Shown here in pieces: positions 6,694 to 60,563 of a stretch of 64,000 bases of DNA. Below the pieces are notes generated by a model. The model was given only the letters and a program-made list of their open reading frames with translations, searched no databases and was not told where the DNA came from. Every line of letters starts with the position of its first letter. Positions within the stretch are counted from its first letter, which is position 1. The position numbers were made by a program, and so were the translations under genes. Location: IMG/VR virus record IMGVR_UViG_3300026521_000161, positions 42,142 to 106,141 of that record, one strand, 5' to 3'. Source of the stretch: a virus.

Positions 6694-7706
6694 AATAAAA
6701 CCTTTTTAATAGCAACAGCTGTCTCTCTTGTTGTATCTTGTACCCATGAAGAATATAATTCTGGATATGCTTCTCTCTCTAGTAGGAAATGACTCCATGC
6801 TTTTGGATCATTCATATACCCGCCTATGATCCATCTTTTATACATAAGGTGGTTAGGCCATCTATCATAGATCTCTTTATGATATCCAGCTATTTTAAGG
6901 ATATTTTGCACTTTACCAATAGGTAGTTCTAAAAAAATATCTACTAGTTCATCTATACTAGATGCATCTAGTATACGCTTACTGTATTTACACTCATCAC
7001 ATCCGATGCAATCTAAGTCCATATCTTCTATGTGTTTATACGTTAACGTCTTTTTAACTTTACTAAGGACATCCTCTGGTAACCAATATTCATCTTCTTC
7101 AACTACTCTAGCTGATAAGGCTATTTGACTTAGTCTACCATGAGTTCTAATTTGTCCGAAAACAAAATATGGAGCTTTAACTTCTATAGCCTTATAATTA
7201 GTGACATGACTAAACGGTATATCATCATGTTTGATACCGGCTGCCATAAGTGCACGTATATTTGTATAAAGCTTACCATTCTCTATAAAGCTAAACGGGG
7301 CTATATAATTCATGAACTCTTCATTTTCCAACGTGGCTACATGTGATTTAAGAGATATCTGATGTAGTACTTTAACTTCATATACATCATTAACAGTTGT
7401 AGTATGATAATCGAGTATAACTGGAGCAAACTCTAATGGTCTTCCAGGCACTTTTCCAATTTCACTGTTACTTACATCGAGTTCTTTAAAACTTAAATCA
7501 GGAGCAGCTTCCTTTAATAACTTATCGTAACGTTTATATTTACTATTCGACTTATCCTTACCTCTACTTATAGCAGCAATACTAGTAACAAAGTTAACTC
7601 TACTATCTAAATCAGTATTTAACGGTACATCGACATCACCAAAGATTTGGTAATTGATGTCTTTAACATAACAGCCGTTAGAAAACTCTGTGAATGTAAC
7701 TTTCAT
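6684..7706 (-). CDS. thyX: Divergent flavin-dependent thymidylate synthase (ThyX-like)
   Basis: PYFVFGQIRTHGRLSQIALSARV aligns with ThyX PxFVxRQxxRHRxxSxxxxSxRY; SIAAISRG and RPLEF match the AARxSY and SPFEH regions. Confidence 0.6.
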   Translation of the reverse strand: MKVTFTEFSNGCYVKDINYQIFGDVDVPLNTDLDSRVNFVTSIAAISRGKDKSNSKYKRYDKLLKEAAPDLSFKELDVSNSEIGKVPGRPLEFAPVILDYHTTTVNDVYEVKVLHQISLKSHVATLENEEFMNYIAPFSFIENGKLYTNIRALMAAGIKHDDIPFSHVTNYKAIEVKAPYFVFGQIRTHGRLSQIALSARVVEEDEYWLPEDVLSKVKKTLTYKHIEDMDLDCIGCDECKYSKRILDASSIDELVDIFLELPIGKVQNILKIAGYHKEIYDRWPNHLMYKRWIIGGYMNDPKAWSHFLLEREAYPELYSSWVQDTTRETAVAIKKVLLDK

Positions 7707-8239
7707 TATTTTAGCCCTTCTTCTAATGTTTCTCTCTCTTTATCTAGATCCCTGTTTAAAGCACCATCACTTGTAAACTTGTCCCCAAATCTAGCCTTTA
7801 GCTTGTTTATGTTAGTAACCATAACCTGCTCAGCACTACCATTATTTTTCTCAATAGCTGCTAGTACAAGATTATAAACTTTGTTAGCTTCTGTTTTAAC
7901 ATCCCCTATGTTTAACACTTTACCATAGAACATAGTCTTTTTAATCATGTCTAAACCATCTAAAGATAAACGTAGTCCTCTTGTATCAATTCTATCTAGA
8001 GGAAAATCTACTTCATCCTTTAAAACCGCTAAAAACCACAACATGTCACCTAGTTCTTCTAGACCATTAATTCTGTCATATTTCTCCATAGCCAAATTGT
8101 ACTCGTCTAACTCACCGGCTAAGCCTATAAACGCATGTGCTATCCTATCTGTTAAACCTAAATCAACAACATCTAAACTTAATGGTCTAAATTTACTTTC
8201 TGTTTTTAAAGCTAAATTAACATATTCTAAAAATACCAT
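7706..8239 (-). CDS. MazG-like nucleotide pyrophosphohydrolase
   Basis: GLAGELDE, EELGDMLWF and NINKLKARF motifs. Confidence 0.85.
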   Translation of the reverse strand: MVFLEYVNLALKTESKFRPLSLDVVDLGLTDRIAHAFIGLAGELDEYNLAMEKYDRINGLEELGDMLWFLAVLKDEVDFPLDRIDTRGLRLSLDGLDMIKKTMFYGKVLNIGDVKTEANKVYNLVLAAIEKNNGSAEQVMVTNINKLKARFGDKFTSDGALNRDLDKERETLEEGLK

Positions 8240-8242
8240 AAA

Positions 8243-8392
8243 TCATACCTCACTTTTTTTAACATCACCTGTTAAAAAAAAATTATTTAGAGCCACACGT
8301 AACCATTCCTTATGCTCATCACTACCGTGTTTGATTTGGTCAAATAACGATTTTGCTTTACTTAACGCTTCTTCTCTTTCTTTGTCAGTCAT
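8243..8392 (-). CDS. Small hypothetical protein (49 aa, not in ORF track)
   Basis: MTDKEREEALSKAKSLFDQIKHG...KSEV*, preceded by aaggag RBS. Confidence 0.6.
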   Translation of the reverse strand: MTDKEREEALSKAKSLFDQIKHGSDEHKEWLRVALNNFFLTGDVKKSEV

Positions 8393-8444
8393 ATTTACTC
8401 CTTCTTTATATTTCAATCATTATTAGTTACATAAAAAAAGAATA

Positions 8445-8472
8445 GTAACTAGTGGTCATGACCACTAGTTAC
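8445..8472 (-). terminator. Perfect palindrome with U-tract
   Basis: gtaactagtggtcatgaccactagttac. Confidence 0.7.
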
Positions 8473-8598
8473 CTAATTAAACATTTCGCATGCATTACAT
8501 TCATAAAGCTCGGCTTCTTCTAAAATACTAAACTCCTCCTCTACGTCTTCTGGTAGGTCATTAACTATTTGTTCTTGTTCTTTGTTATTATCTTCCAT
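8473..8598 (-). CDS. 41-aa acidic peptide with C-terminal CxxC (not in ORF track)
   Basis: MEDNNKEQEQIVNDLPEDVEEEFSILEEAELYECNACEMFN*; fills the gap between the upstream gene and the terminator. Confidence 0.5.
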   Translation of the reverse strand: MEDNNKEQEQIVNDLPEDVEEEFSILEEAELYECNACEMFN

Positions 8599-8615
8599 AT
8601 AGACAACCAATTACT

Positions 8616-9569
8616 TTAAAGTATTTCATTTTCGTAAACCTCCTTTAACTGTATTGCTAGTTCCTTACCTTTAACATTACGTTTATTACTATCAAGTATT
8701 TTTCTATATGTAGATTTACTATTAATGCCTTCTAACATAACGTTAATGATAATGGCCATAAATGTTGGTAAATGCTCAGCCATAGCTATAGATAGATTTT
8801 TACTATCTAAACTAAAGAACCCCCTACCGAGAACCTGTATATATAGATCAGATGTTAAGCCTTCACCTCTACCTGTAGGGATGATAGTTTTAATGTTGTT
8901 AACCATATTAACAATAGTTCTACTTGGTAATACAAACTCTTTCTTACTAAACTCATGAGTTAATAGACCAAATAGATCTTTCATGCTACCATGTTGTAAC
9001 TCTTTAATATCTTTTCTGTTAAGTCTCATGATATAATCAGTTAGTTTGTGGCTATCTTCTACATCATCCATAGTTAACATATGTAACTTAGAAACTATAT
9101 TAACGTTATCTATAATAGTTCTATCAAACACCATCATAGACGTGGTTGTTGATATGATACTACCAAAAGCTTCTACTAGTTGTGGTTTAACATATGGTAA
9201 CCAATCTGTCTCACCCTCATACATGAGTTTAGTGAAAATCAATCTTTGTAATTGCAGTTCACCATTATACTTATCTTGTAATTTTTCATGCACAGTAACC
9301 ATATCGTCTAATTTACTTTTCATATATGGACGCATGTCTAAAGCGATAGCATCATCACCTCTAACGGTTTTAAATATAAGAGGATGTTGAAAGAGATCAA
9401 TATCTTTTTCTAAATCATTCTTACCGGTAATAATGATAAGTTTAGTTCTTCCTTCTTTAAATTCATAAGCTAAGTTATCATTTGTTTTAGCTAGGTAAGA
9501 GTTAATACTCGCCTCCAATTTATCCTTGTCTAGGAATGCTCCTAGCGTACCTTCATAAATGTCAATCAT
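8616..9569 (-). CDS. Conserved chimallivirus protein adjacent to chimallin (phiKZ gp52-like)
   Basis: FQHPLIF...ALDMRPY motif and position between chmA and the polymerase; recalled similarity. Confidence 0.55.
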   Translation of the reverse strand: MIDIYEGTLGAFLDKDKLEASINSYLAKTNDNLAYEFKEGRTKLIIITGKNDLEKDIDLFQHPLIFKTVRGDDAIALDMRPYMKSKLDDMVTVHEKLQDKYNGELQLQRLIFTKLMYEGETDWLPYVKPQLVEAFGSIISTTTSMMVFDRTIIDNVNIVSKLHMLTMDDVEDSHKLTDYIMRLNRKDIKELQHGSMKDLFGLLTHEFSKKEFVLPSRTIVNMVNNIKTIIPTGRGEGLTSDLYIQVLGRGFFSLDSKNLSIAMAEHLPTFMAIIINVMLEGINSKSTYRKILDSNKRNVKGKELAIQLKEVYENEIL

Positions 9570-9663
9570 ATGTATCCTTTATCGATATTTCAAGTTATCT
9601 CCTAACTTTTAAGTAAAAAAGAAATACTAAGTTATGGACTATGTCCATAACTTAGATCTTTTG

Positions 9664-11466
9664 TTAACGTCTATATCTGTTGTATGTTGCGTGTGGCGCA
9701 CTGTAGTGCTGCCTTGCAGTAGACATACCAAAACCAGTAGAACCAACTGACGCAGAAGCATATGCAGATGCAATGTTTTGTAGGTTATTAAATTCAGAAT
9801 ATCCGATAGATGGATTATCAGTATCTGGAGTATAACCACCATCCATAGCACGGCTTGTTAATTCATCGATGAAAGCTCCATCTAAAACAACTCTAACTGC
9901 TCTACCAGTAATAACTGGTTTAAGGTTAAGCATTGTAGCAACTTTATCGATAACTTCAAGTTTTAGTGTATATGGATCTTTACCTGTTGATGACACACAG
10001 ATGTCCTCTGGTGCATTAGAATAAATCCAATCGATTAATAAGCCAGGATCATTTGTGTGTTTAGCGATGAACACTGTGTCGATCTCTCTGATGTCTCTAG
10101 GATTAGACTCATTATCTAGGAACTCACCTAGTGGAACATACATAGTCGCAGCAGCAACTGGAATATCAGGCATTTCACTTCCAACAAGATCTGAAGCTGC
10201 ATTTAAAATATCTTCTGTAGCGAAGCGTCTACTAGCTTTATCAGCTAATGCAGTAAATGGTCTTAAGTACGGATAATCAGAACCAAACTCTTCAATATCT
10301 AAAGCAAAGATAGGCTTTGGAACGATATGCTCTCTGATGATATCGTTAACGATTTCTGGGCTAGCTTTCTCATCGTTGAACGAAATTTTCTCACCATATT
10401 TACGCCCATCACCTTGGTAGTTAAATAGGAAGTTAAGCGGACCAGCATCTTTCTCTACAATAAGATTTTTAAGTACACCACGGTTAGTAAACGTTGTAGC
10501 ATTGATCATAGATAATAACGCATAGTTGATTGTAGGTGCAGCACCAATGAACTCATTAAGGATGATCATAGGTTCAGCCATACGTTTAAATTTACCTGTA
10601 TATCTATCTGTATCTTCACTAATGATATACTCGATGTAACCAGCAGTAGTTGTTAACTTGTTACGACCGCCTTGACCATTTAATCTTCTTGCACTTGTAT
10701 TTTTAACGATAGATACCTCAACGTTGAAGTCTGTACGTACATTACGACCTAACATGTTGATAGAGCTACCTGAGTTAAGACCAAGATCTAAAACTAATCT
10801 ACCATTTTCAGTTACAGCATCAATAGCATCTACAGTGATGTCACTCTCGATACCAGTGTCTTTTGCATAGTTAGAAACAATGATATCTTGTGCATATCTA
10901 GCGATGATTTCAGCAGTTTGCTCTAATGGAGCACCAGTAGGCATGATAACACCTTCACAGAATACTAAATCTTCCTCTTTTGTTTCCATAGCACGACATA
11001 GTACAGCTGTTGCAGCTTCGAAGAAAATATCATCAAAACCATCTGCAGTAACAAGAACATCAGAACTGTTTTTAATGTTAAAGCTTTCAACGATTGTATG
11101 TACGTCTAAAGGAGCACGACCAGTAGCTTCTAGTAGTGTAGAGAAGTAATATGTTTTACCGTTATCGCCTTTGTAAGCGAATACCAAGTGACTGAACTCG
11201 AAATCAAATTTGTTAAGATCCATCTTGATGAACTTGATATCAACTTTTGTATGCTTAAGTGTTTTTTGCGCTATCTCTAAAAAGCTCTCTAGAATTTCAT
11301 TGTCTCCATAGTTACCGATAAGTAAACTATCTGCACCAGATAAACCAAGAACATTTAAACTTTGTCTTTGTTGTCTTTCTCTTCTTTGTCCAGTTCTTTC
11401 AGAACCACCTCTTGTTTCATTTAGGTTTTCTAAACCTTCGTCGAAATTTACTTTTTCGAATGCCAT
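9664..11466 (-). CDS. chmA: Chimallin, phage nuclear shell protein
   Basis: 600 aa; VPLGEF...RDIREID and ITGRAVRVVLDGAFIDEL match chimallin motifs; disordered N-/C-termini; highly expressed codon usage; early-type promoter upstream. Confidence 0.85.
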   Translation of the reverse strand: MAFEKVNFDEGLENLNETRGGSERTGQRRERQQRQSLNVLGLSGADSLLIGNYGDNEILESFLEIAQKTLKHTKVDIKFIKMDLNKFDFEFSHLVFAYKGDNGKTYYFSTLLEATGRAPLDVHTIVESFNIKNSSDVLVTADGFDDIFFEAATAVLCRAMETKEEDLVFCEGVIMPTGAPLEQTAEIIARYAQDIIVSNYAKDTGIESDITVDAIDAVTENGRLVLDLGLNSGSSINMLGRNVRTDFNVEVSIVKNTSARRLNGQGGRNKLTTTAGYIEYIISEDTDRYTGKFKRMAEPMIILNEFIGAAPTINYALLSMINATTFTNRGVLKNLIVEKDAGPLNFLFNYQGDGRKYGEKISFNDEKASPEIVNDIIREHIVPKPIFALDIEEFGSDYPYLRPFTALADKASRRFATEDILNAASDLVGSEMPDIPVAAATMYVPLGEFLDNESNPRDIREIDTVFIAKHTNDPGLLIDWIYSNAPEDICVSSTGKDPYTLKLEVIDKVATMLNLKPVITGRAVRVVLDGAFIDELTSRAMDGGYTPDTDNPSIGYSEFNNLQNIASAYASASVGSTGFGMSTARQHYSAPHATYNRYRR

Positions 11467-11643
11467 AGTATTTCCTTTGTTTTTTATAGATTAGAGCATA
11501 AGGCTCTAGTAAATTATATAGGTATAAAATATATACGAACTAAATAACTTAATAGAACCTGTGCTCCGTGTATATGCATATCTACCGAAGTAGATAAAAC
11601 ATTATGTTCAATATAGTAATATTTTGTAAAAATATATTACTAA

Positions 11644-11662
11644 GTACTATATGAATAATATG
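11644..11662 (-). promoter_or_regulatory. Putative early promoter upstream of chmA
   Basis: Minus strand CATATTATTCATATAGTAC; member of a motif repeated 9 times. Confidence 0.6.
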
Positions 11663-11741
11663 TTGTTAATTATAATTAGAATTAATAAAACATCATATAT
11701 CAAGTATATTCGTTTTGTTGAAAAAAATTTAAAGGATTTTT

Positions 11742-12812
11742 ATGTTAAGCCTTTTCTATAAAAAGAATGATGTAAATTACAGTATGATACACGGACCTAA
11801 ATTAGAATATATAAGAAATAATATACATAGTATTTTATATATACTAAACTCCTATTATAAAGATATAAAAGGATATGTACGTAGACCTAACATGTTAGTT
11901 AGTTTATTAGAGTCTTTAGATATAGACCCAACACTAGAACCAGATGTTGTTTATGGTAATATATCTTCAGATAGTATATACCTAGCGTCTAACTTTAATA
12001 TTATTAATGGCGTTAAGACAGACGATGTGTTTAATAAGGATACAGTAATCTATAATACTAAAGAGATATTCATATACAACAACGATAACTTTAATTTCCT
12101 AGATGAAAGCATATTAGATATCCCTAGTGTAGAATGTATTTGGTCTAATAACACTGATCTGTTTTTAACGCACCCTAAAAACTATAAAGGTGGTGTTTAT
12201 GATTTCGATATGTATGAATACACTATAAATATAGATATGTTAGCTATGCAGTATTATTACTGGATGAAAGAACAAAAAACCTTAGAATTAGATTTAGACC
12301 CAGCTAGGTTTATACATGATGTAGTTTTAACAAATACTATTAAATCTATATTTAATATAAACTACATTAACCGCATAATAGCTATAGCTAATGACGAATT
12401 TGTTAATCCTTTCACTAACGATAACCCTTTCTTTATTAAAGATATATCTAAAAAGATAGACAGTATGATATTATGGTATCTTAAGAATTTAAGAAAAAAG
12501 AAAGATCTTTATTATAAAGAGATATTGACTATACTTCCTATATTAACAGGAGGCTCTGTGTTAGATACGTTAACTCTTTCTGAATTATACCTTAACAGAA
12601 GAACTAAATGGGTATACATATTAGCACGCTTAGATATAGTTAACTTTTTATTATATAATTTTAAATCTAAAAAAGAGAAACACTACCATAATGATATCAT
12701 GAGTGATTTTAGCTATATGGTTAAAAATAAATATTTGATTACAAATAACGAAACAATAAATAGTGTACTCGAGAAAAAGGAGGATAAATTGAAACAATAT
12801 TTATTCCTGTAG
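11742..12812 (+). CDS. Conserved chimallivirus (likely virion) protein
   Basis: 356-aa ORF, RBS aagga; MLSLF N-terminus and DMLAMQYYYW resemble a phiKZ-like core family (recalled). Confidence 0.6.
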   Translation: MLSLFYKKNDVNYSMIHGPKLEYIRNNIHSILYILNSYYKDIKGYVRRPNMLVSLLESLDIDPTLEPDVVYGNISSDSIYLASNFNIINGVKTDDVFNKDTVIYNTKEIFIYNNDNFNFLDESILDIPSVECIWSNNTDLFLTHPKNYKGGVYDFDMYEYTINIDMLAMQYYYWMKEQKTLELDLDPARFIHDVVLTNTIKSIFNINYINRIIAIANDEFVNPFTNDNPFFIKDISKKIDSMILWYLKNLRKKKDLYYKEILTILPILTGGSVLDTLTLSELYLNRRTKWVYILARLDIVNFLLYNFKSKKEKHYHNDIMSDFSYMVKNKYLITNNETINSVLEKKEDKLKQYLFL

Positions 12813-12821
12813 GAGGTTAGC

Positions 12822-13061
12822 ATGGGTGATAGTGTTAAAGGTAACGTAGGTTCATTCGTACCAACAACTTGTCTATCAAGGGCTGGTGATGAAACAAAAG
12901 CACTTAAAATCATTAGCAATAGTGTAGATGTGTTACTTGTAGAAACTGACGTTATAGATTTTAATAAAGAGATAGGTCTACATGAGTTCTCTCGTGGTGC
13001 TGCTAGAACATACCTAGCATTAGTAAGAGCTATAGATTATCTTAGAGTAAGAAGAAACTGA
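12822..13061 (+). CDS. Hypothetical protein
   Basis: 79 aa, RBS aggagg, stop overlaps the next start. Confidence 0.6.
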   Translation: MGDSVKGNVGSFVPTTCLSRAGDETKALKIISNSVDVLLVETDVIDFNKEIGLHEFSRGAARTYLALVRAIDYLRVRRN

Positions 13062-13858
13062 TGGGTGCTATAAGTTACGGTGTTTCTCGCATCATGCGGG
13101 AGATACCATCTGAAATTTTACATATGGCTTTCTTAAGAAAATCTACATATTTTAGTGTAGAAACCTCTTTAGAAAAACAGATAACAGATTTAGTTATAAA
13201 AAGTGTAGTGCTTAGGGATACCAATATAGTTGGTGGTATGACTGTCACTATACAATTAGAGAAATGTAGTTTAACGTATTACGAAAAAAATCCAACACAA
13301 CACAACTTAGTTATAAAGGTACCATACCTAGCTACCAATGGTAAAAAGATATTATCCCCATTATCACTGGTAGCTGATACAGGTGGTAGATCAGGCTATA
13401 ATAGTTCAGATAACGCTATATTATCCTCTCTTAATAACAAGATGGAACATGATGCCTTCATAGGTGAAGGTATAGCAACGTCTAACCTAGAGCTCATAGC
13501 CCCTAATACCATTTTAGTCTATGATGAAGTATCTATGGTTGTTAATGGGTATATAAAGGTACTCATAGAGAACAATGAGAAACTCTCCAACCTATCCCCT
13601 AAATCATATCTTAACTTCGGTGAGCTATGTGTATTAGCAGCTAAACAATACATATACAATAAACTAGTTATAGATCTAGATAAAGGAGCTCTCTATAGCG
13701 GCCATGAGTTAGGTAAGATAGCAGATATCATTAACAGCTATGAATCAGCTACAGATGAATACAACACATTCATAAAAGAAAAATGGATGAAGACGTTATT
13801 CATAAATGATAAACCAGCTATGTCTAGTTTCATCAAAGCTATGGTTAGGCCTATGTAA
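13061..13858 (+). CDS. Conserved chimallivirus virion protein
   Basis: MGAISYGVSRIMREIPSEILHMAF N-terminus and LAAKQYIYN...GHELG C-terminal motif typical of a phiKZ-like core family (recalled). Confidence 0.65.
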   Translation: MGAISYGVSRIMREIPSEILHMAFLRKSTYFSVETSLEKQITDLVIKSVVLRDTNIVGGMTVTIQLEKCSLTYYEKNPTQHNLVIKVPYLATNGKKILSPLSLVADTGGRSGYNSSDNAILSSLNNKMEHDAFIGEGIATSNLELIAPNTILVYDEVSMVVNGYIKVLIENNEKLSNLSPKSYLNFGELCVLAAKQYIYNKLVIDLDKGALYSGHELGKIADIINSYESATDEYNTFIKEKWMKTLFINDKPAMSSFIKAMVRPM

Positions 13859-13874
13859 CAAACAATAATATAAC

Positions 13875-13904
13875 ATATAGAGTAGGTATCATCCTACTCT
13901 ATAT
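13875..13904. terminator. Hairpin after gene
   Basis: atatagagtagg-tatcat-cctactctatat. Confidence 0.65.
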
Positions 13905-14067
13905 ATATATACATCTTTTATCTTATGTTAAGTAACATAGTTACTCTTTATTTAAGAGGTATAAGTGATATACTATATCACTCTTATATAGGTATTATTA
14001 AAACCTCCCTCCTTTAATGGTTCCCTCCTACGAGTAGAATCATCAATATATAAATCTATCCTATATA

Positions 14068-14250
14068 TTATTTATATCTAGGTATAACTATAACTGTATC
14101 TATATGTTCAACCTCATGCCCAACATCAACAACACCCCTAACAACTACATGATCTTCATCTACCATCTCTGTAGTTATCTTCATAACTCTACCACGCATA
14201 TATAACTTACGTATAGCTTCATCCATCTCTTTTATAACACGTTCCATCAT
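14068..14250 (-). CDS. Small hypothetical protein
   Basis: 60 aa, aaggag RBS; bracketed by a 16-bp inverted repeat (13974-13989 / 14281-14296). Confidence 0.5.
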   Translation of the reverse strand: MMERVIKEMDEAIRKLYMRGRVMKITTEMVDEDHVVVRGVVDVGHEVEHIDTVIVIPRYK

Positions 14251-14344
14251 AACTCCTTATATTATACTTCATAACAACATATATAAGAGTGATATATATA
14301 TATATACTAACAACATACACATAACATACTCTTCTCTTATTTAA

Positions 14345-14687
14345 GAAGGTAAGAGTTAACATAGTTGGTTAACTCTCATTCTCCCACACCCACCCGTAAC
14401 GATGTTATCTAAGCCCTCATGATTCACTACGTTCACATGGGACTTAAACTCTCCCCCTCCTTTCCCCCACTGTTCCTAGTAGTTGCTAGGTCTTGACACA
14501 TCTGCATACTTCTCTTATAACCCATCCCTTTCCAGAGACAGGTTATAAGATACTCACATGTGTAATAAGAGTGGTCGCCATGGTCCGCATGACTAGATAT
14601 CAGTGATCGCAACTTAACAGGTTATCACTATGGATGGTTTGCTAAGTGATTTAGATATGATTATCTTTCTTATTATTTAAATCAATA
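14345..14687 (-). ncRNA. Structured non-coding element A (candidate ncRNA or origin primer RNA)
   Basis: Minus-strand stem CUUAUAACCUGUCUCU-GGAA-AGGGAUGGGUUAUAAG with G-U pairs and GNRA loop, several more hairpins, G-tracts; GC far above background; no ORF. Confidence 0.55.
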
Positions 14688-14744
14688 ACATATATGTAAC
14701 TAAAAAATAAAATATAAATAACTAAGGACATAAGTCCCTAGCTA

Positions 14745-16373
14745 TTAAAGTTCATATGTTGTTACACCCATTCTATCTATAGTTTTAGTAACTAACTTTA
14801 TATCTCCTTCTAGAGTCCTAAACAACTGTAACATATCATATATGTAATGTGTGTTTAGATTGTTCATAAGGATATCATGTAACTGTTCTATTTGCATATT
14901 AGTTAACTCTCCAAAATACTCTATACCAGATATAATACCAGACTTAACCTTTATCTTAACATTACTATCAACATCCCCATAAATATCATATATAACCCTA
15001 GTGTCTTCATTACTATCTAGTTTCTTAAAGAACACTGATAATAGTTCATGGGGTTTATTGTCCTCTTTTTTAAGTTTAGGTCTTAAATATGTATCTACAA
15101 GTGTATTATGTATATTATTTATACGATCTCGTAAATCATTACTATCAGGATATACCTTCTTTAATTCATCATGCACATCATGAATATCACTAACATCGCT
15201 AGTTAATGTAAAATAACTACCACTAACATCACTCATGAATCTAGCGTATAGTACATTATCTATAATTGTGGCTTCTATTATAGAGACAGGTGTGTATTTA
15301 TCCATAGCCTCAGATATCTCCTTAAAACCTTCAGTAAGTATACTAGTGTATTTTCCTAATGGATAATTGGCATCAAGACTATCGCTTGTATCGTTACTCA
15401 TATGTACCTCTTTAGCATAAATTATAGCCTTACACATCATATCTTTATCAACACCATCTGTTAAGTCAGAGATATCTGTAGATAATACATACTTCTTACT
15501 ATAAGATTCATATACTATAGTTAATGTGTTTTCATGTTCCATTATATCATTAACCGTAATACTACCACAACACACCGTATCCAACATATCACCAACAGCA
15601 TCAGATATAGAGACATTAAGTTCTACCTCACCAACTGTCGGGTAGCCTTTGTTAAGTAGATACGCCTGCTCTATAAGTAAGAATAAATAATTTATAGTTA
15701 AATCATCTATATCTCTGATATCTATAGTATATTCTAGTTTAACTATCTCACCGATGTATTTATTTAATTCTATTTCCAATATACCGTGGTTACATAACGC
15801 ACCATTTACATATTTAAATATACCATCAGTATGTTCTAGATTAATATCTCTAAGAATGCTGTTAGCTTTTTCATTTGCTTTAATATGGACTATAGCATCA
15901 CATGTATTTAATGCGATATTATATTTTATGGTATCAGCATCTATGATGTTGCTTAGATTCCCGAATAGCTCGTTATCTATTTCAGTAACAGATATGAACT
16001 TACTATCCTTAGTCTGTACATCTAAAACAATAACCGTACGAGCAATCTTCACTACTACTATATCAGCAATGCCTTCACTAATATTTTGTCTAAACTCATC
16101 TGTAAGGATCCTACTAACTATATTATCATTAAGTGTTTTAGAGACAATCAGCTCTAATGTATCATCCTCTTCCGATTCTAAATCACCTATAAGATATTTA
16201 TAGCTTTCATAATCCGTAACAGACATCGCTTTTATGAAACTTAATGTATTTAAAGTTATGTTAACTTCTGTTAATGTTATAGATGTTATTCTATAAGGTA
16301 CCTCATTCTCTGTTAATAAATCAACAACCTCTTTATAAGATCTGAAAAAATCCGAAACGTTTCTAGTTACCAT
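14745..16373 (-). CDS. Acidic hypothetical protein
   Basis: 542 aa, aaggag RBS, early-type promoter at 16415-16434, hairpin at about 14721-14745 downstream. Confidence 0.75.
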   Translation of the reverse strand: MVTRNVSDFFRSYKEVVDLLTENEVPYRITSITLTEVNITLNTLSFIKAMSVTDYESYKYLIGDLESEEDDTLELIVSKTLNDNIVSRILTDEFRQNISEGIADIVVVKIARTVIVLDVQTKDSKFISVTEIDNELFGNLSNIIDADTIKYNIALNTCDAIVHIKANEKANSILRDINLEHTDGIFKYVNGALCNHGILEIELNKYIGEIVKLEYTIDIRDIDDLTINYLFLLIEQAYLLNKGYPTVGEVELNVSISDAVGDMLDTVCCGSITVNDIMEHENTLTIVYESYSKKYVLSTDISDLTDGVDKDMMCKAIIYAKEVHMSNDTSDSLDANYPLGKYTSILTEGFKEISEAMDKYTPVSIIEATIIDNVLYARFMSDVSGSYFTLTSDVSDIHDVHDELKKVYPDSNDLRDRINNIHNTLVDTYLRPKLKKEDNKPHELLSVFFKKLDSNEDTRVIYDIYGDVDSNVKIKVKSGIISGIEYFGELTNMQIEQLHDILMNNLNTHYIYDMLQLFRTLEGDIKLVTKTIDRMGVTTYEL

Positions 16374-16414
16374 AATAACTCCTTCTTTTATTAAAATATA
16401 TTTAGTATATAACT

Positions 16415-16434
16415 ATACTGTATTAATAATATAT
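16415..16434 (-). promoter_or_regulatory. Putative early promoter
   Basis: Minus strand ATATATTATTAATACAGTAT followed by a mini hairpin. Confidence 0.55.
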
Positions 16435-16439
16435 AAGTA

Positions 16440-16860
16440 AAATATATTACATAACATATATTTCGCCTATAATCAATTTTATATATTAACCTATCATTTT
16501 ATCCTGTAAACATTATTATAGCTTTCTAGCTATATCTATGTTAGTATTAAACACATATAAACACAATGATAATAAATTAAATAACCAAAACAGCAAAACT
16601 GCATTTCATATACCTGTTTGTTATACATACACACGTAGTGTAGTCTTTTATATATACATACTAGTAAGTAACTACGTAGTTATTAGGTATATGATACATA
16701 TATACTATATAGTAATATTTATACATATAGCTGTATATACTGTATATTATACACCTTATATAGGTATATACATACTATATTTAACTTATATATACCTATA
16801 CTAGATAGTGTAGTTGTTATTTTTATCAACTACACTATTAATTGAGTATTATTATTATAG
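16440..16860. other. AT/TA-dinucleotide-rich low-complexity non-coding tract
   Basis: Runs of tata/cata/tagt and short palindromes (e.g. tagtgtagttg...caactacacta); no credible ORF. Confidence 0.6.
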
Positions 16861-17082
16861 AGCTATAAAGGGGACTTTGTCCCCTTTATAGCGATATATA
16901 GTAAGTGAGTGTAGCTCTGTGCTGCTCTGTTTCTTTTATCCGCTCACGTTTCGCCTTTGGGGGCTACACGACCGCTCCGATTAGTCCTCTCCCCCCAGAA
17001 AATGTCTGGGTCATGGATCGAGGTTGTGACTTTATTATGGTCACAGTTGTCATCGTTAGATAATTAATTATTTTAATCAATA
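16861..17082 (-). ncRNA. Structured non-coding element B, related to element A
   Basis: Hairpins gctataaaggggac-ttt-gtcccctttatagc, gtgtagc...gctacac, tgtgac...gtcaca; shares the ctctccccc tract and upstream attattt(t/a)aatcaata with element A. Confidence 0.5.
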
Positions 17083-17168
17083 TATAAATATTTATCTATT
17101 ATTAGATATTTACTAATTACAGGTATACCATTAGTTAGAATGAATATAGACAGTTAAAGGAAACAATA

Positions 17169-20100
17169 ATGGAAAAGTATAAGAGTTTAAAATACATTTA
17201 TAATAATAGAACTAAGAGATATACCATATACATAGATAATGTAGATCTTATAAAAGATGGTATAAAACATATCATAGGTAGAAGTGCTAGTAGGATACTT
17301 ATAATAAAAGATAAGAAGACACAGTTTGATATCTATAGTTTCTTCTTATTAGAGTTAGAGCATACATTAGAAACATTAAAAGAGACTAGACCGGACTTAG
17401 CTGTTAAGATAGGTGGTATAGTACTTAATGATCTTATGAGTTTCCTTAAGACTAAAACATGGTTAGCTGAACGTAATCATAAATCAGTAGTTAACGTATT
17501 AGATTATAATAATATTAGATCAGTTATGAAATATACGTTATTACCTCACCAAGTAGAAGTATTTAAGAAATATGAAGTTGTTAAACGTATGGCTAACCTT
17601 AGAGGATTCATGATGGATCTAGGAGCTGGGCAAGGTAAGATGGAAAAGAATGGTACACCAGTTAAAACACCTACTGGTTGGACTAATATAGAAAAGCTTA
17701 AGGTAGGCGATAAAGTTATAGGTAGTAATGGCAGACCAACTACTGTAACTGGTGTGTTCCCGCAAGGTAGGTTACCGTTAGTTAGGTTAAAGTTTGAAGA
17801 TAATAGATATAGCGATGTAGGGCATGAACATCTATGGAGTGTTTCTGTAAATAATAAATGGTCTGTTATGAAAACTTCTAAAATAATGAAATACATAGAT
17901 AAAGGAAAAGATATTTATATACCTCTTATAGATTATAAGGTAAATAAGAATGATGTAGTAGATGAGCATTATATACATCCTTACCTAGTAGGAGTTATAT
18001 TAGCTAGCGGTAGTAAGGTTAAGTGTATTAATGTAACCATAGATAAGGAACATGATAAAGTTAAATCTATATTACCAGAAGAGTATAGTCTATATAAAGA
18101 TATTAACACATATCACGATACGCATAACCATAGGTTATTTTATAATGGTAAAGGTGATTGTAAGATAACTAAGCAGCTAAAGAAACTCAATATCTTTAAT
18201 GGTAGAGACATAGTACCGGCACTACCAGCTAGTTATGAACACGGTTCTTATCTGACTAGAGTAGAGTTACTTAATGGTATATTAAATACTTCAGGAACTA
18301 ACACTAAAGGTAATATCACTTACACAGAAGTTAAAGATATAAAGCTAGCTAACGTTATAAAAAGATTAGCATGGACTTTAGGGGATATAGCTTCCATACG
18401 TAAAGTTATAAGAACTACTAGATTAGGTTATGAATATACAGCATATGTGGTTAAGATAGTTAAAGAAAAGATCATTAAGATAACTGGTTATACAGAGTTA
18501 CCAGAGCATGAAGCAACATGTATATCTGTATCTGCTAAAAATAAACTATATGTTACAAAAGACTATATAGTAACACATAACACATTTTCTTCATTAGCGT
18601 TAGGTGAAGCTCTTTCTTATAACAATGTTATAGTTATAGCTCCTAGCGCTACCATAGATGACGTATGGGTTAAATCTGTTACAAAAGAGTTATATAAATC
18701 ACCACAGCCTTATTTTGTTCTTAATAGTAAAAATAGGGATTATAAAAAAGAAAGATTTCTGATAATGAGTTACGAGACATTAGATAAGGTTAATAAAGAT
18801 AAGAAATTGTTAAGAATGCTTAAGAGACTTAATCCTATGCTGATAGTGGACGAGTTCCATAACTTTAACAATATCAAGGCTTTAAGAACATTTAACCTTA
18901 TGGAGTTTGTTAAGAGAGTTGATTTTCAAGATGTTGTATTACTAACAGGTACGCCTGTGAAGATGAGCCTTAATGAACTTAAACCTATGTTATATATACT
19001 AGACGATAAGTTTAAATCTATAGTAGATATGTATGATGATTTCTACAGAGGTAGATATGAAATGTTTAGGAATAGATTCGACGTATATAGGAAACATGTT
19101 CCTAAAGATACTAAATCATTACCTCCTATTAAAATATCTGAATATAGAGTACAAATACCAGATAGTGATAGATTTACTCTAAAGGTAATTAATGAAGAGA
19201 TAAAAGAGTTTAAGCTTAAACGTATGGAAGAGATAATGAGTAAGATGGATATATATGAGTCTATATACGAAGCAGCTCTTAATGAAGTATTTGTTTCTAT
19301 GGTTACGTCAGGTATTAAAAAAGGCGAAGCTAATAAGTTATTATCTGATTATAGGAAACTAGTTAAGTCTATAAGAAAGTTTAATAAAGATAAAAAGTTA
19401 TATATGGCTCAGAATGATATCATAAGTGCTCGAGAAATGGAAAAAGAGATAATTTTAAGTAATCTATCTAGTAAAAGTAAAAAAGCTTTTAAAGACGTTA
19501 TAAGCATCATTAAGTATCCAGAGCTTAAAGTACTTGGTGAAGCATTGGGCAAAGTGTTGTTAGGTACTAGAATAAAGTGTTATAACGAATTAGCCAAACA
19601 TATTAACTACAAGAACATCCTATTATTAACAGATAAGAAAGGTATCGTATTTAGTAATTATGTTAGTACATGTAAAGTAGCTATAAATAAAGCTACTAAG
19701 GATGGTTATAAACCTGTAGGTGTATTTGGTGATTTAGTAGAGAAACTACCTGTTTCTGTTAAAGCGTTCAATGATTTAAAAGATAAGACAAATCCTATAG
19801 TAGCTACTTATAAATCATTATCAACCGGTGTTCCTTTAGTAGCTGGTAACATAGTTATATTACTAGACACTCCTGTTAGGAATTATCTACTAGACCAATC
19901 TATATCTAGAGCATGGAGGATAGGTCAGGATAGACCAGTAGAGGTATTAATGGTTAAATTAGATACTGAAGGTAAATTAAATATAACAGATAGAGACCAT
20001 TATATTTTAAATATGTCTACACAGAATGTAGAAATGATAACAGGTAATGTTAACCCTTTCGAGATACCACAACAGATAATGATAGAGGATGATATAGTAG

Positions 20101-20258
20101 ATGAAGAAGATGAAGCTATACTAGATATGGAAAATACAGTTAAAGAAGAACTTAAGTCATCTTTATTAAATAATATTAATTCAAATATGGTTAGTACAGA
20201 TGAAGATAATACGAGTGTGTTAGGTAATATAATAAATAAATTTAAGTTTAAATTATAA
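17169..20258 (+). CDS. SF2 (SNF2-like) helicase containing an intein
   Basis: Walker A GAGQGK|T (split by the intein), DEFH, TGTP, STGV, QSISRAWRIGQ (motif VI). Confidence 0.85.
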   Translation: MEKYKSLKYIYNNRTKRYTIYIDNVDLIKDGIKHIIGRSASRILIIKDKKTQFDIYSFFLLELEHTLETLKETRPDLAVKIGGIVLNDLMSFLKTKTWLAERNHKSVVNVLDYNNIRSVMKYTLLPHQVEVFKKYEVVKRMANLRGFMMDLGAGQGKMEKNGTPVKTPTGWTNIEKLKVGDKVIGSNGRPTTVTGVFPQGRLPLVRLKFEDNRYSDVGHEHLWSVSVNNKWSVMKTSKIMKYIDKGKDIYIPLIDYKVNKNDVVDEHYIHPYLVGVILASGSKVKCINVTIDKEHDKVKSILPEEYSLYKDINTYHDTHNHRLFYNGKGDCKITKQLKKLNIFNGRDIVPALPASYEHGSYLTRVELLNGILNTSGTNTKGNITYTEVKDIKLANVIKRLAWTLGDIASIRKVIRTTRLGYEYTAYVVKIVKEKIIKITGYTELPEHEATCISVSAKNKLYVTKDYIVTHNTFSSLALGEALSYNNVIVIAPSATIDDVWVKSVTKELYKSPQPYFVLNSKNRDYKKERFLIMSYETLDKVNKDKKLLRMLKRLNPMLIVDEFHNFNNIKALRTFNLMEFVKRVDFQDVVLLTGTPVKMSLNELKPMLYILDDKFKSIVDMYDDFYRGRYEMFRNRFDVYRKHVPKDTKSLPPIKISEYRVQIPDSDRFTLKVINEEIKEFKLKRMEEIMSKMDIYESIYEAALNEVFVSMVTSGIKKGEANKLLSDYRKLVKSIRKFNKDKKLYMAQNDIISAREMEKEIILSNLSSKSKKAFKDVISIIKYPELKVLGEALGKVLLGTRIKCYNELAKHINYKNILLLTDKKGIVFSNYVSTCKVAINKATKDGYKPVGVFGDLVEKLPVSVKAFNDLKDKTNPIVATYKSLSTGVPLVAGNIVILLDTPVRNYLLDQSISRAWRIGQDRPVEVLMVKLDTEGKLNITDRDHYILNMSTQNVEMITGNVNPFEIPQQIMIEDDIVDEEDEAILDMENTVKEELKSSLLNNINSNMVSTDEDNTSVLGNIINKFKFKL
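17640..18581 (+). mobile_element. Intein (314 aa, class-3 type) with degenerate LAGLIDADG domain
   Basis: Starts MEKNGTPVKTPTGW, block B GHEHLW, block F ATCISV, ends IVTHN followed by +1 Thr; LAGLIDADG boxes read PYLVGVILASG and LLNGILNTSG. Confidence 0.85.
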
Positions 20259-20275
20259 AAAAAAAATAAAGTAAG

Positions 20276-20301
20276 CCATAGTGAGCGTTAGCTCACTATG
20301 G
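20276..20301. terminator. Hairpin between convergent genes
   Basis: ccatagtgagc-gtta-gctcactatgg. Confidence 0.75.
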
Positions 20302-20303
20302 TG

Positions 20304-21077
20304 TTATTTAAGTTTGTATGCATGTCTTCTAACGTTTGATAGCTCGCCGCACTCTATCTCACGGATTGTGATGTTACCAGCGAAACTTCTACCTAGATAG
20401 TAAGTAGCATCGTCAGTAAATACGATAGTGTCATTTTTCATATTGTTAGGTTTAAGACCAGCGTTTGGTAGCACTGTTGTTGGGTCTAATAATAATAATG
20501 TGTTACCATTTCTTAGTCTACTACTAGTAGGTAACTTAACGTTATCTAACTTCATGAAGTCAAGTTTGTATATAAATAATAATGGGATAACATCATCATC
20601 TACCTTAAAGTAACTCTCCATCTCTTTTAACACATCCTCAGAGAACGATTCTCTGTAAGGGAACTCTACGTTAGATAATAGTTTAGCAAATCTATCATCA
20701 TTACGCATCAGGTTAGATACGAGTTCATTACGATCTTCCTCATAATCACCCATAACTAATCTCGTTTGTGTTACTCTACCTTGCTCACTTGCATGGACAT
20801 CACATAACCCACTAACTAGTTTCTTGTTAACGAAATTAGTCAATGCTGTGTTGTAAAACTTACTTATATCTTTACGAACATCCTCTCTAACAACCGGGAA
20901 GTCTATCTTACTTTCCACCGCATCATCAAGTAGCATATAAGGACCTTTAAGTTCACCTCTTCTCACGTATTTAACAACAACAAATATACCGTTAAGTAAA
21001 ACAGGCTCCCCTACGAGCATTTTGTTTACATCAGCATTTTTAACCATATCTTCTAAACTTTCTACAATGATCTCCAT
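20304..21077 (-). CDS. Hypothetical protein
   Basis: 257-aa ORF, RBS aggag. Confidence 0.7.
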   Translation of the reverse strand: MEIIVESLEDMVKNADVNKMLVGEPVLLNGIFVVVKYVRRGELKGPYMLLDDAVESKIDFPVVREDVRKDISKFYNTALTNFVNKKLVSGLCDVHASEQGRVTQTRLVMGDYEEDRNELVSNLMRNDDRFAKLLSNVEFPYRESFSEDVLKEMESYFKVDDDVIPLLFIYKLDFMKLDNVKLPTSSRLRNGNTLLLLDPTTVLPNAGLKPNNMKNDTIVFTDDATYYLGRSFAGNITIREIECGELSNVRRHAYKLK

Positions 21078-21086
21078 GATCTTCTC

Positions 21087-21680
21087 CTATTTACTTTCTA
21101 CAATAAATTTAAATGTTTTACCATCATTGTCTATGATGATTTTAAGTGTTTCGTCATCACTCATGAACGGTAATAATTCACTACCGTGTTGTGGTTTATA
21201 ACCAGCATCATAAAGACTTATAAGTTTATCACTTATAGTTTCTTTAACTGGTTCAATAATTTCAGGTTCAGGGACTCTTTCTCTGGATCTAGGTTTATAA
21301 TCTCTAGCAGAAGATCTATACTCTCTAGAACTCTCACGAGAGCTTCTACTACCACCTATACCTATAGAAGCAGAACTACTACCACCATATCTTTGCCCTC
21401 CTCTAGACGAACGTCTAGGTTCCTCATAAGAGGCACCAGCTCTGGACGGCATTCTTGGTGGTACGTCGTCGTAATAAGGATCTCTACCATATCCTCTATC
21501 TCTACCACCATAAGCAGGTTCTCTACCTACAGGTGGTCTACCAGCATCTAACGGCCTACCCATATCATCACATTCCACCCAACGATCGTAATCGTCATAT
21601 CTCCAAAATCGATTATAACGATCTACCCATACAACAGGTTGTTTGTATTCGTCCACTAGGAACGGTTCATAATCAGTCAT
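21087..21680 (-). CDS. Early protein with R/G/S/Y-rich disordered central region
   Basis: GGRDRGYGRD, RRSSRGGQRYGG, SRSSRESSREYRSS; aaggag RBS; early-type promoter upstream. Confidence 0.7.
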   Translation of the reverse strand: MTDYEPFLVDEYKQPVVWVDRYNRFWRYDDYDRWVECDDMGRPLDAGRPPVGREPAYGGRDRGYGRDPYYDDVPPRMPSRAGASYEEPRRSSRGGQRYGGSSSASIGIGGSRSSRESSREYRSSARDYKPRSRERVPEPEIIEPVKETISDKLISLYDAGYKPQHGSELLPFMSDDETLKIIIDNDGKTFKFIVESK

Positions 21681-21708
21681 TACGACTCCTTCTTTTTTAT
21701 ATAAAATT

Positions 21709-21735
21709 AGTACACTGTACTATTTGAATAATATG
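21709..21735 (-). promoter_or_regulatory. Putative early promoter with mini hairpin
   Basis: Minus strand CATATTATTCAAAT-AGTACAGTGTACT. Confidence 0.6.
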
Positions 21736-21783
21736 TGGATAAAAAAATGTAGAAATAACGTAGCCGTTAAGCCACGTTATTCT

Positions 21784-24186
21784 TTATTCTATTTTGTCTG
21801 TTGGTTCTTCAGGTTCATCACCATCTTCTGGAGTTTCATCCACATTACCTTCAGTAGATTCATCTTCATTAACTTCTGGAGTTTCTGAACCACCGTCATC
21901 TATGTTATCATCATTATCAAATTCGTTATCTTCTTCCTCTTCTTCTATTTCACCGTTACCTATTTTATCTCTACGTTTATCGAACTTAGATACCATTTTC
22001 TCATTCTCTTTAAGGAACGGTATGATAATCGCATCTAAACTTTTACCAAATACGTTAAAATCAGTTAACAAGTTAAACATAGGTTTACCGTCCTCATCTA
22101 ACGTAAACATCTTAGAGAAATCAGGTAAAACATTATTTTCATCTATATATCTTCTAAGTAACGTATGTTTAATTAAACCCTTAAGATCATCTAAGTCATC
22201 ACCTATAGTACCTAAATAATTAGATGGTATTAAATCACTACTAAATAGTTTATCTATAACGTTATCTAATAACTCTGTATATTTATCTACCATATCAGCA
22301 ACATTAGTTTCCTCTGTCACTTCTGGCTTAGGCAATGTTATTTGTATGCTATCTATAACTCTAGTTATCATATATTCAACGATATCGTCGTCACTAGCTT
22401 TCTTAAGAGCTTCTTTATTAACATCATTGTTATTGTTAACTAAGAATCTTTTCATCTTACTATTAAGCATATCTGATAAAGCGCTACGTAACATACTCTT
22501 GAATTTACCGTCGACTTTTAACTTCTTCTGTATATCTTTTGTTAAAAGTTTTTCATATTTAGATTGTAATTTAAGTATGCGTTTTCTTAATAGTATATTA
22601 TTAGCAATAATGGTTGTAGCGAATTCTGGACTATATCCGTTATCTATCATTTCTGGAGTTAAGTATAAACTAGTTATGATAAGTTTATCTATATCTTCTT
22701 TAAGGGTTTCATCTATTGGGTTTATCTCATTAGCTTTTTCTTCTATATCTATATTTACATCTGGTAATCCAGGATGTTTAAAGTTAAAACTAAATCCTAA
22801 TTTATGAACCCAATCAGTTAGATCATCAACATTTAAGATACCTATAGGCATACTTATCTGTCTGTTCCTAACTATCTCGGCCATGATGGCTTCCATAGAT
22901 TTTTTATATTCTGGATCATCTGGATCTAAGTCCACTTTAACATCTGTAGTAGTTACACTACTTTTTATATATGATAACATCTTAGTAAAAACTAACATAG
23001 CACGCATGCTCATTAATACAGACAATCTTTCTAATAAACTCTCACCCATACCATTTTCTCTAAAATTAATAGCATAGTAACTAACAAGATTAGTAGGTAA
23101 AAATAAAATGTCTATAGGTGTTTTAGAGATGATGCTATCTGCCATATCTAACACTATATCGTCGTCTAACTCGAACTGTAAATCACTAAAGTCTTTATAA
23201 GGACTATTATCTAAGTAACCTTTTAACTTCGTTTTAATAAGTACATCTCTTAATCCGTCTAGTCCCTCTATAGTAGGGGCATCTTGTGTCATAGATTTAA
23301 GACTATTATTAACCTTAGCTATTAGTCCGTCTGAACTTGTAGGGTTACTACTCTTTCCTTGTTTCTTTTTCTTATTTTTTAAAAGAACAAAATACCCATA
23401 GTGTTTACTAGGGTCTTCTTGGCTAGTTATAGGTATTATTTTGTTAGGACTCATCTTCTTGATTATTGGTTTATCGCTACTTATATCAGTGTCGTCCATT
23501 ATACCGAAATGATCATCATGTATCATAAGAGCTTCTAAACCAGGACTAATGCTTTCGCCACTTAGTGTATTATTAACTATGTAGTTAGCTTTTTTCTCAT
23601 TGAGAATGTCTTCTGCTAATATAGATGGGTTAGAAGTAAACTTAAATATTTTATCTTTATCTTCTTTTATGGAATCTATATAATCACCCTGTGACATAAG
23701 CAAACTTTCAACACCAACACTAATGTCACTTTTTATTGTTTTAAACATGTCACTTATATTTTTAGGCGGTATATTAAGTTCTACATAAGCACCCTTCTTA
23801 AATAATGATTCCTCCACTATCTCATTTAACTTATCACTAAGACCATATGTGTTTTCTGCATATGTATCTATCATACCACTTATTAGCGATTGTGCTTCAG
23901 TAGGTAATTTAAACCCACTTAGTTTATATGTTAAACCACCAGTTCCCATATCGTTAGGTGAAGTAACTAATGACGTAACAAGTTCTATAGCTAAATCTAT
24001 ATCTGGGAATATCTCCTGTATATTTTTAACTAAGTTTTCCTGTCCATATCCATGATCGGATAACTTAACTAGTTTTTTAAAATCAACAGCTTCCACTGTT
24101 TTATTAATAGCAGTTGTTTTCTTAGCTATTTTAGGTAACAAACTTTCGTATTGCACGGGTTCTTTTATAGTTCTTGACATTTTCAT
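21784..24186 (-). CDS. Portal protein (phiKZ gp129-like)
   Basis: FPDIDLAIELVTSLVTSPNDM, GAYV, GMGESLL, LDPDDP, PEFATTI; acidic C-tail; VGVES/PGLEA processing-type sites. Confidence 0.75.
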   Translation of the reverse strand: MKMSRTIKEPVQYESLLPKIAKKTTAINKTVEAVDFKKLVKLSDHGYGQENLVKNIQEIFPDIDLAIELVTSLVTSPNDMGTGGLTYKLSGFKLPTEAQSLISGMIDTYAENTYGLSDKLNEIVEESLFKKGAYVELNIPPKNISDMFKTIKSDISVGVESLLMSQGDYIDSIKEDKDKIFKFTSNPSILAEDILNEKKANYIVNNTLSGESISPGLEALMIHDDHFGIMDDTDISSDKPIIKKMSPNKIIPITSQEDPSKHYGYFVLLKNKKKKQGKSSNPTSSDGLIAKVNNSLKSMTQDAPTIEGLDGLRDVLIKTKLKGYLDNSPYKDFSDLQFELDDDIVLDMADSIISKTPIDILFLPTNLVSYYAINFRENGMGESLLERLSVLMSMRAMLVFTKMLSYIKSSVTTTDVKVDLDPDDPEYKKSMEAIMAEIVRNRQISMPIGILNVDDLTDWVHKLGFSFNFKHPGLPDVNIDIEEKANEINPIDETLKEDIDKLIITSLYLTPEMIDNGYSPEFATTIIANNILLRKRILKLQSKYEKLLTKDIQKKLKVDGKFKSMLRSALSDMLNSKMKRFLVNNNNDVNKEALKKASDDDIVEYMITRVIDSIQITLPKPEVTEETNVADMVDKYTELLDNVIDKLFSSDLIPSNYLGTIGDDLDDLKGLIKHTLLRRYIDENNVLPDFSKMFTLDEDGKPMFNLLTDFNVFGKSLDAIIIPFLKENEKMVSKFDKRRDKIGNGEIEEEEEDNEFDNDDNIDDGGSETPEVNEDESTEGNVDETPEDGDEPEEPTDKIE

Positions 24187-36649: not shown

Positions 36650-36676
36650 AGTACTTGGTACTATCTTAATATTATA
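36650..36676 (-). promoter_or_regulatory. Putative early promoter with mini hairpin
   Basis: Minus strand TATAATATTAAGAT-AGTACCAAGTACT. Confidence 0.55.
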
Positions 36677-41759: not shown

Positions 41760-41788
41760 TACGTACCTCCTATTTTAATAATATATAA

Positions 41789-44551: not shown

Positions 44552-44580
44552 AGTATTTACATACTGTATTAATATTATAT
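44552..44580 (-). promoter_or_regulatory. Putative early promoter with mini hairpin upstream of phuZ
   Basis: Minus strand ATATAATATTAATAC-AGTATGTAAATACT. Confidence 0.55.
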
Positions 44581-48998: not shown

Positions 48999-49027
48999 TA
49001 TTCCTTTTTACTTAATCAAAATAAAAA

Positions 49028-60543: not shown

Positions 60544-60563
60544 AAAAATAAAAAAACTTCGAT

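Follow-up and report, generated by a model that had tools for sequence, protein, structure and literature searches.

A predicted structured non-coding RNA gene and a second GC-rich segment between the DUF7484 and helicase genes of an uncultured nucleus-forming phage

Introduction

What is the nature of two GC-rich segments that lie outside the larger open reading frames (ORFs) between the DUF7484 gene and the SNF2 helicase gene of an uncultured phage? The segments occur in a stretch of 64,000 nucleotides (nt), referred to here as the window, which supplies the numbering wherever no other record is named. It derives from a 106-kb viral contig (IMG/VR record IMGVR_UViG_3300026521_000161; ~31% GC, 92% coding), and its DNA is contained in a public hydrothermal-vent metagenome. 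A preliminary description of the window had read the segments as two copies of one co-oriented module, each consisting of a 16-mer, a structured segment with G tracts and an AT-rich tract, and had preferred to see in them replication origins primed by R-loops, with paired new non-coding RNAs as the alternative. For the segment nearer to the DUF7484 gene, the comparisons reported here strongly support the non-coding RNA alternative. This segment, termed RNA-A, appears to be a genuine, previously undescribed, free-standing gene for a structured non-coding RNA of ~320 nt, representing a new RNA family in nucleus-forming phages. The other, segment B (16862-17066), is a lineage-specific GC-rich segment with a sequence different from that of RNA-A.

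The contig encodes a chimallin-type nuclear shell protein (9664-11466; PHROG 4795) as well as a PhiKZ-type DNA polymerase, a tail sheath and virion proteins, and is therefore that of a divergent nucleus-forming (chimallin-encoding) phage, an assignment already made in the preliminary description and borne out by the shell gene. Deposited phages yielded no DNA match, nor did a tblastn search with the window's chimallin. Contigs 99% identical to genes within window positions 7000-24000 are found in a biofilm metatranscriptome (2025, run X2), including the gene ORF542 that lies between the two segments; this phage or a near-identical strain is therefore present, and probably active, in that second study. 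Relatives were obtained by scanning JGI metagenomes with an alignment of DUF7484 proteins (relatives at 56-76% identity); a scan of genome contigs yielded nothing relevant. The comparison set consists of L122, G001 (a 186-kb IMG/VR genome) and G002, to which L121-L123 were added for searches with segment B; three records, G000, G001 and G002, all incomplete, served for the GC-skew and primase checks. The DUF7484 protein of G001 is only 41% identical to that of the window, and the range for the clade is about 41-76%.

Fold and homologues of RNA-A

RNA-A has homologues in three other phage contigs, L122, G002 and G001, which together with the window make four members, each with one copy per genome. 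The L122 copy (10243-10549) is 76% identical to the window in nucleotides across RNA-A, versus 69% in the coding flanks, and the similarity stops at the terminal hairpin of RNA-A. A consensus of these two sequences contains 83 pairs, with 14 compensatory double changes and none broken. The G001 copy, a GC-rich island located through the shared 13-mer AGTTGCGATCACT, aligns to the covariance model from end to end (22 bits, E 3.5e-5 in 32 kb), and the G002 copy, located with a pattern of three invariant blocks (GTTGCGATCACT, CTAGT and CGACCA), scores 182 bits against the model. It is evident that the family block GUUGCGAUCACU..CUAGU..CGACCA, invariant and single-stranded, occurs in all four members together with the 13-helix fold. 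When the four sequences are counted in an alignment fitted to the covariance model, 94% of cells form a standard pair, versus 72.8% in shuffles (0 of 500 reach 94%) and 31-48% when, as a control, the partners are slid by 1-3 columns; 51 of the 83 pairs, spread across 13 helices, have changed on both sides. An independent alignment of three sequences (MAFFT with RNAalifold) gives 76 pairs, 24 of them compensatory.

Individual elements of the fold differ in how they are conserved. A 17-bp hairpin capped by GGAA has a wholly different sequence in G002. The G tracts of the 3' third, GGGG..AGGAG..GGGG and GGG.GGG..GGG, are kept in all four homologues, and a candidate pseudoknot between a loop and a single strand (AGUUGC/GCAACU) shows no variation in three copies and is missing from G001. 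The minus strand of RNA-A folds at -108.7 kcal/mol (z -4.6) versus -80.9 (z -2.2) for the plus strand; these energies and the many G-U pairs mark the minus strand as the RNA strand, and the same asymmetry of folding is found in the G001 copy.

No copy of RNA-A matches any of the 4227 families in Rfam (Rfam 15, including 6S, RNase P, tmRNA, ROOL, GOLLD and riboswitches) at gathering or permissive thresholds, and ARAGORN places no tRNA or tmRNA in the region. The Rfam negative carries weight, because the same permissive search gives a score of 68 bits to a group I intron in another part of the window. That Rfam-confirmed intron (51043-51480) could be taken as a precedent for reading RNA-A, B or both as degenerate group I introns, other known ribozymes or mobile RNAs. 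We consider this very improbable, since a permissive Rfam search (E up to 10) gives no intron or ribozyme match in 13800-17200 nor in the G001 and G002 copies, no split host gene surrounds either segment, and the flanks of RNA-A differ by genome. The intron itself (minus strand, RF00028, 68.3 bits, above the gathering score) lies between the halves of a RecJ-like gene; it was missed by a default-filter scan of the whole window and found only by the short-range permissive search.

Comparison of RNA-A with segment B

Several of the shared elements from which a duplicated module had been proposed are indeed present. A degenerate pattern for the 16-mers (14672-14687 and 17067-17082, minus strand) has exactly two perfect matches in the 106-kb contig, the shared tract CTCTCCCCC has only two occurrences in the same 106 kb (14449 and 16987), a hairpin stands behind each 16-mer, and both segments are GC-rich islands, with B holding the contig's highest 80-nt GC peak. 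Taken alone, a 15/16 match is no better than chance across the genome: blastn-short gives E about 1-2, and several other sites match equally well. The 16-mer is meaningful through its position and because the RNA-A homologues of L122 and G002 conserve it. A scan of viral contigs with the bare 16-mer returned only chance AT-rich matches, and a motif match at G001:121955, which lies within coding sequence, was likewise dismissed as chance. The ttagata that was said to follow both 16-mers is present, but TTAGATA/TATCTAA is common (39 and 68 copies) and its spacing differs between RNA-A and B.

Beyond the 16-mer, the GC-rich bodies of RNA-A and B share neither sequence nor structure by MAFFT, blastn-short, nhmmer or covariance model, and the covariance model of RNA-A does not match segment B. 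The GGGGGAGAG 9-mer is not kept among the RNA-A homologues. In base composition, G exceeds C in RNA-A (G 0.25 versus C 0.18), and the minus strand of B is not G-rich (G 0.23 versus C 0.24). With regard to the AT-rich tracts, the first (13860-14340) is not a plain low-complexity tract, as it contains a 60-aa ORF, the promoter-like sequence of this ORF and the terminator of the preceding gene. The second (16440-16860) is truly non-coding, with 22% G+C on the minus strand, and carries a degenerate 9-mer array and palindromes. No comparable tract stands behind RNA-A in L122, G001 or G002, so an AT tract is not part of a conserved unit; the AT-rich tracts are ordinary promoter-bearing spacers. The two-copy architecture is not supported: RNA-A and B are unrelated beyond 16-25 nt resembling a promoter or leader, and B lacks homologues, is not G-rich and has a core whose fold is not significant. 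The alternative of new non-coding RNAs is strongly supported for RNA-A (four homologues, covariation, a strand-specific fold, no Rfam match) but not its pairing with B, and the covariance search in related phages divides in the same manner, with the stems of RNA-A conserved in L122, G001 and G002 and no homologue for B.

Probable promoter and neighbours of RNA-A

Directly upstream of RNA-A is a block that is nearly identical in the three closer copies and consists, in order, of a T-run, TGATTTAAA.A.TAAGAA.GAT and the 5' strand of the closing helix. In our reading, this block would comprise the promoter and the 5' end of RNA-A. The phage also has a recurrent general promoter (T-run, TATATTATTAATATAGTAC, 4-5 nt, GTACTAA), which contains a short inverted repeat, AGTAC..GTACT, and is located 16-55 nt upstream of at least 13 genes, ORF542 included. 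It is similar in form to the early promoter of PhiKZ, which is AT-rich and has an upstream T-rich element (PMC8244752).

A co-oriented gene begins 16-175 nt downstream of RNA-A in all four genomes, and in G001 RNA-A reaches almost to the ribosome-binding site of ORF157. These arrangements might suggest that RNA-A is a cis-acting 5' leader of its downstream gene, comparable to a riboswitch or an attenuator. Leaders normally travel with their gene family, however, and no single family accompanies RNA-A: the downstream genes (60, 425, 157 and 95 aa) are mutually unrelated in sequence and size across the four genomes. Moreover, RNA-A ends in a stable terminal hairpin followed by a separate promoter-like sequence, belonging to the downstream gene itself, in both the window and L122. 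RNA-A is therefore not the leader of a gene family, and a leader role of any kind seems improbable to us. The spacer behind RNA-A is promoter-bearing and 90-175 nt long in the window (about 90 nt), L122 and G002, and measures 16 nt in G001.

The placement of RNA-A is nonetheless not random. A divergent DNA polymerase gene of G001 has its ATG 89 nt from the 5' end of RNA-A, and in G002 the RNA-A leader is 74 nt from a divergent SNF2 helicase gene; in the window and L122, RNA-A lies within an accessory island adjoining the chimallin-DUF7484 block. We propose that RNA-A would be transcribed from the conserved upstream block and, once folded and probably bound by protein, would act in trans. There is probably a link between the replication and nuclear-shell gene block and both the expression and the function of RNA-A, because it has a divergent promoter region in common with the DNA polymerase gene in G001 and with the helicase gene in G002.

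Segment B and ORF542

Homologues of B were not found in G001, G002 or L121-L123. The whole of B folds at z -4.66 on both strands, which is due to the strand-symmetric terminal hairpin, and the core alone reaches only z -1.7. At 88 nt, the distance of its 16-mer to the helicase ATG is close to that of the RNA-A leader in G002 (74 nt), and the few bases just behind the 16-mer resemble, in our reading, a shortened RNA-A leader. In G002, RNA-A is found directly at the helicase gene, without B. ORF542 has no relatives in Pfam, PHROG, a related-locus search, a search of 5.8 billion proteins or the ESM Atlas, and it has its own consensus promoter and terminator; a comparison of repeats places it and the 60-aa ORF in the same ribosome-binding-site context. 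The promoter region of ORF542 (16392-16460) is made up of a 24-nt unit repeated about 2.9 times, and up to three tandem promoter copies may exist.

When these arrangements are compared, the simplest history of the B region would be an insertion of 2.4 kb, comprising B, the AT tract and ORF542 with its promoter and terminator, which landed or recombined between the RNA-A leader and RNA-A. Such an insertion would have duplicated, beside the helicase gene, 16-25 nt of the RNA-A leader. What would be a second copy of the RNA-A promoter thus probably drives transcription of B.

Conversely, B and the AT tract may contain no RNA gene at all and represent either non-functional filler carried along with ORF542 or an element that works as DNA (origin, recombination hotspot or packaging site, for example). 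The absence of homologues, the feeble fold of the core and the equal folding of both strands are all consistent with this, as is the fact that no other non-coding stretch of the 106-kb contig is as long as 16374-17168, with its 9-mer array and palindromes. Against it stand the copy of the promoter-like RNA-A leader directly before B and the perfect 14-bp hairpin directly after it, the sharpest GC peak of an AT-rich genome, suggestive of selection rather than drift, and the lack of a skew feature at the locus. We rate a B without an RNA gene below even odds, and nonetheless as a possibility to be taken seriously.

Replication-origin reading

Could RNA-A, taken by itself, nevertheless mark a replication origin? 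According to such a proposal, the G-tract 3' third of the transcript would stay hybridized to its C-rich template beside AT-rich DNA, priming or licensing replication, and the RNase HI-domain core protein of the clade would possibly sense the hybrid. Transcription-primed origins of this general kind are those of ColE1 (RNA II), T4 and T7 and the mitochondrial conserved sequence block II (CSB II), where, as predicted for RNA-A, a promoter-driven, structured transcript has G tracts. ColE1 RNA II is likewise a structured RNA, a point in favor of the proposal. A location near replication genes is a further likeness, and RNase H-domain proteins occur in the clade that carries RNA-A.

Other observations point in the same direction. 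The four homologues have the G tracts of the 3' third in common, G exceeds C in RNA-A, and the locus always belongs to the replication block, where its immediate neighbour is the DNA polymerase gene in G001 and the helicase gene in G002. An RNase HI-domain protein (PF00075) of 473-505 aa is present in G001 and G002, encoded in G001 at L134:8453-9874, with none found in the partial G000, and a DnaG-type or Prim-Pol primase domain was not found in the three records, a point of small weight given their incompleteness. Furthermore, PhiKZ155, an RNase HI-domain core protein of PhiKZ, licenses genome amplification independently of nuclease activity, and the mechanism of PhiKZ replication is described as largely unknown (PMC12571901).

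On the opposing side, cumulative GC skew has neither a minimum nor a maximum at RNA-A in G000, G001 or G002; the inflection that an origin had led one to expect is missing, and the skew in the window tracks gene orientation. No conserved DNA or AT-rich tract stands behind RNA-A, the 420-nt AT tract being found only behind B, and the supposed second origin at B is neither G-rich nor conserved. Part of the G tract is engaged in the covarying closing helix (helix 1), and 13 covarying helices argue for the function of a free, folded RNA. RNA-A thus differs from the ColE1, T4, T7 and CSB II systems in having no conserved unwinding element, no skew feature and no sequence relation to them, as well as in its covarying helices and varying neighbours. 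R-loop-primed origins, the preferred reading of the preliminary description, receive no support from the skew and persist as a minority possibility that applies to RNA-A only. We consider it unlikely that RNA-A is a site where replication starts or is licensed, whether through a hybrid or through an RNA recognized by a counterpart of PhiKZ155.

Layout of the island

The features are collected in Table 1. Read along the minus strand from the helicase gene, the order is 16-mer, B, hairpin, AT spacer, promoter, ORF542, terminator, upstream block, RNA-A, spacer and the 60-aa ORF.

Table 1. Features between the DUF7484 gene and the helicase gene, with further examples of the general promoter (window coordinates).
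Feature	Position	Strand	Basis or remark
DUF7484 gene	13061-13858	+	Open reading frame
14-bp hairpin terminator of the DUF7484 gene, convergent with the minus-strand unit	13873-13906		Terminator scan
60-aa ORF with AAGGAG ribosome-binding site; no family match	14068-14250	-	Inside the first supposed AT-rich tract
RNA-A, predicted structured non-coding RNA, 13 helices	14338-14663	-	Folding, homologues, covariation
9-bp hairpin at the 3' terminus of RNA-A, identical in L122	14352-14376	-	Likely 3' end or terminator
Upstream block of RNA-A (T-run, then TGATTTAAA.A.TAAGAA.GAT), containing the 16-mer 14672-14687	14664-14700	-	Conserved; probable promoter
Intrinsic terminator of ORF542 (13-bp stem and T-run), separating ORF542 from RNA-A	14717-14746	-	Terminator scan
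ORF542, orphan protein, part of the apparent insertion	14745-16373	-	Open reading frame
General promoter with perfect match to the consensus (CTTATATATTATTAA), 50 nt before ORF542, partly triplicated	16423-16437	-	Motif comparison
AT-rich non-coding spacer with degenerate TATATATAC array (16688-16747) and several palindromes	16440-16860		Not conserved in relatives
Perfect 14-bp hairpin closing segment B, strand-symmetric, no U-run behind	16862-16892	-	Folding, repeat listing
Core of segment B, GC-rich, lineage-specific	16894-17062	-	Weak fold of its own (z -1.7)
The 16-mer on the side of the helicase gene, 88 nt from its ATG	17067-17082	-	Pattern match
SNF2-family helicase with intein-like insert, divergent from B	17169-20258	+	Open reading frame, domain matches
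General promoter, examples	16423-16437, 36666-36676, 41775-41785, 44569-44579, 53720-53730, 60534-60544, 62354-62364	-	Motif

The island around RNA-A and DUF7484 is a gene-swapping hotspot. Among the neighbours in relatives, L122 encodes, beside RNA-A, a MYG1-like (UPF0160) putative exonuclease or phosphohydrolase (10844-11776, minus strand), and L123 has a similar gene immediately after DUF7484. A hydrophobic ORF of ~22 aa, which possesses a ribosome-binding site and a promoter-like motif of its own, precedes RNA-A closely in L122 (10640-10710, minus strand). The insert in the window's helicase gives weak Hint matches, and residues about 158-471 have no counterpart in the contiguous G002 orthologue (G002:97612-99768); relatives of the insert are found in another G002 gene (49020-49355). 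Elsewhere in G001, at a locus designated L140 (140490-140679, minus strand), a GC-rich leader of ~150 nt separates a consensus promoter from a GGAGG ribosome-binding site and may be a structured 5' untranslated region.

Discussion

The explanation that best accommodates these observations is an RNA-A gene plus a separate unit, B, behind a duplicated leader, both located in the hypervariable accessory island that the DUF7484 and SNF2 helicase genes delimit. To this explanation as a whole we assign a probability of about 0.6. Several observations weigh against it. The upstream block of RNA-A is only loosely like the general promoter of the phage. No gene recurs next to RNA-A across the compared genomes as a candidate protein partner, and three genomes offer no conserved site to which the invariant block would be antisense. 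The fold of B could also suit a non-functional segment, and G002 is the single comparison genome behind the insertion scenario. Lastly, the X2 metatranscriptome contigs cover ORF542 and neighbouring genes and leave the bins with RNA-A and B uncovered, which speaks neither for nor against their transcription.

Among known RNAs, RNA-A can be compared to ROOL, GOLLD and similar Rfam RNAs, which are likewise phage-borne, non-coding and several hundred nt long, with a covarying fold of many helices. RNA-A is smaller than these, has no Rfam match and is so far restricted to one clade of AT-rich chimallin phages. The B region recalls the promoter/stem-loop cassettes (PeSL) of T4-type phages, which flank variable genes, in that short, repeated, promoter-like sequences bracket a lineage-specific insertion (B with ORF542) in a hyperplastic region. 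It is distinct in that the window's motif exists in two copies only and would be the leader of an RNA gene rather than a general early promoter, and in that recombination is a matter of reconstruction. Non-coding RNAs of PhiKZ, from transcriptome and Grad-seq studies, are mentioned in a passage of PMC13282480. They too are non-coding transcripts of a nucleus-forming phage, although they are defined by expression and RNA-A by its conserved fold, and the phages are very distant.

Nucleus-forming phages keep transcription and replication apart from the cytoplasm, and non-coding RNAs are mentioned in their literature only as transcripts. RNA-A would add a complex RNA, supported by covariation and kept across phages whose proteins have diverged to 40-50% identity and placed each time in the block of replication and nuclear-shell genes, and it offers RNA biologists a new fold. 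The general promoter consensus lets the transcription units of this uncultured clade be annotated, and RNA-A itself provides a testable object for replication licensing, the regulation of RNA polymerase or the traffic of RNA in the phage nucleus.

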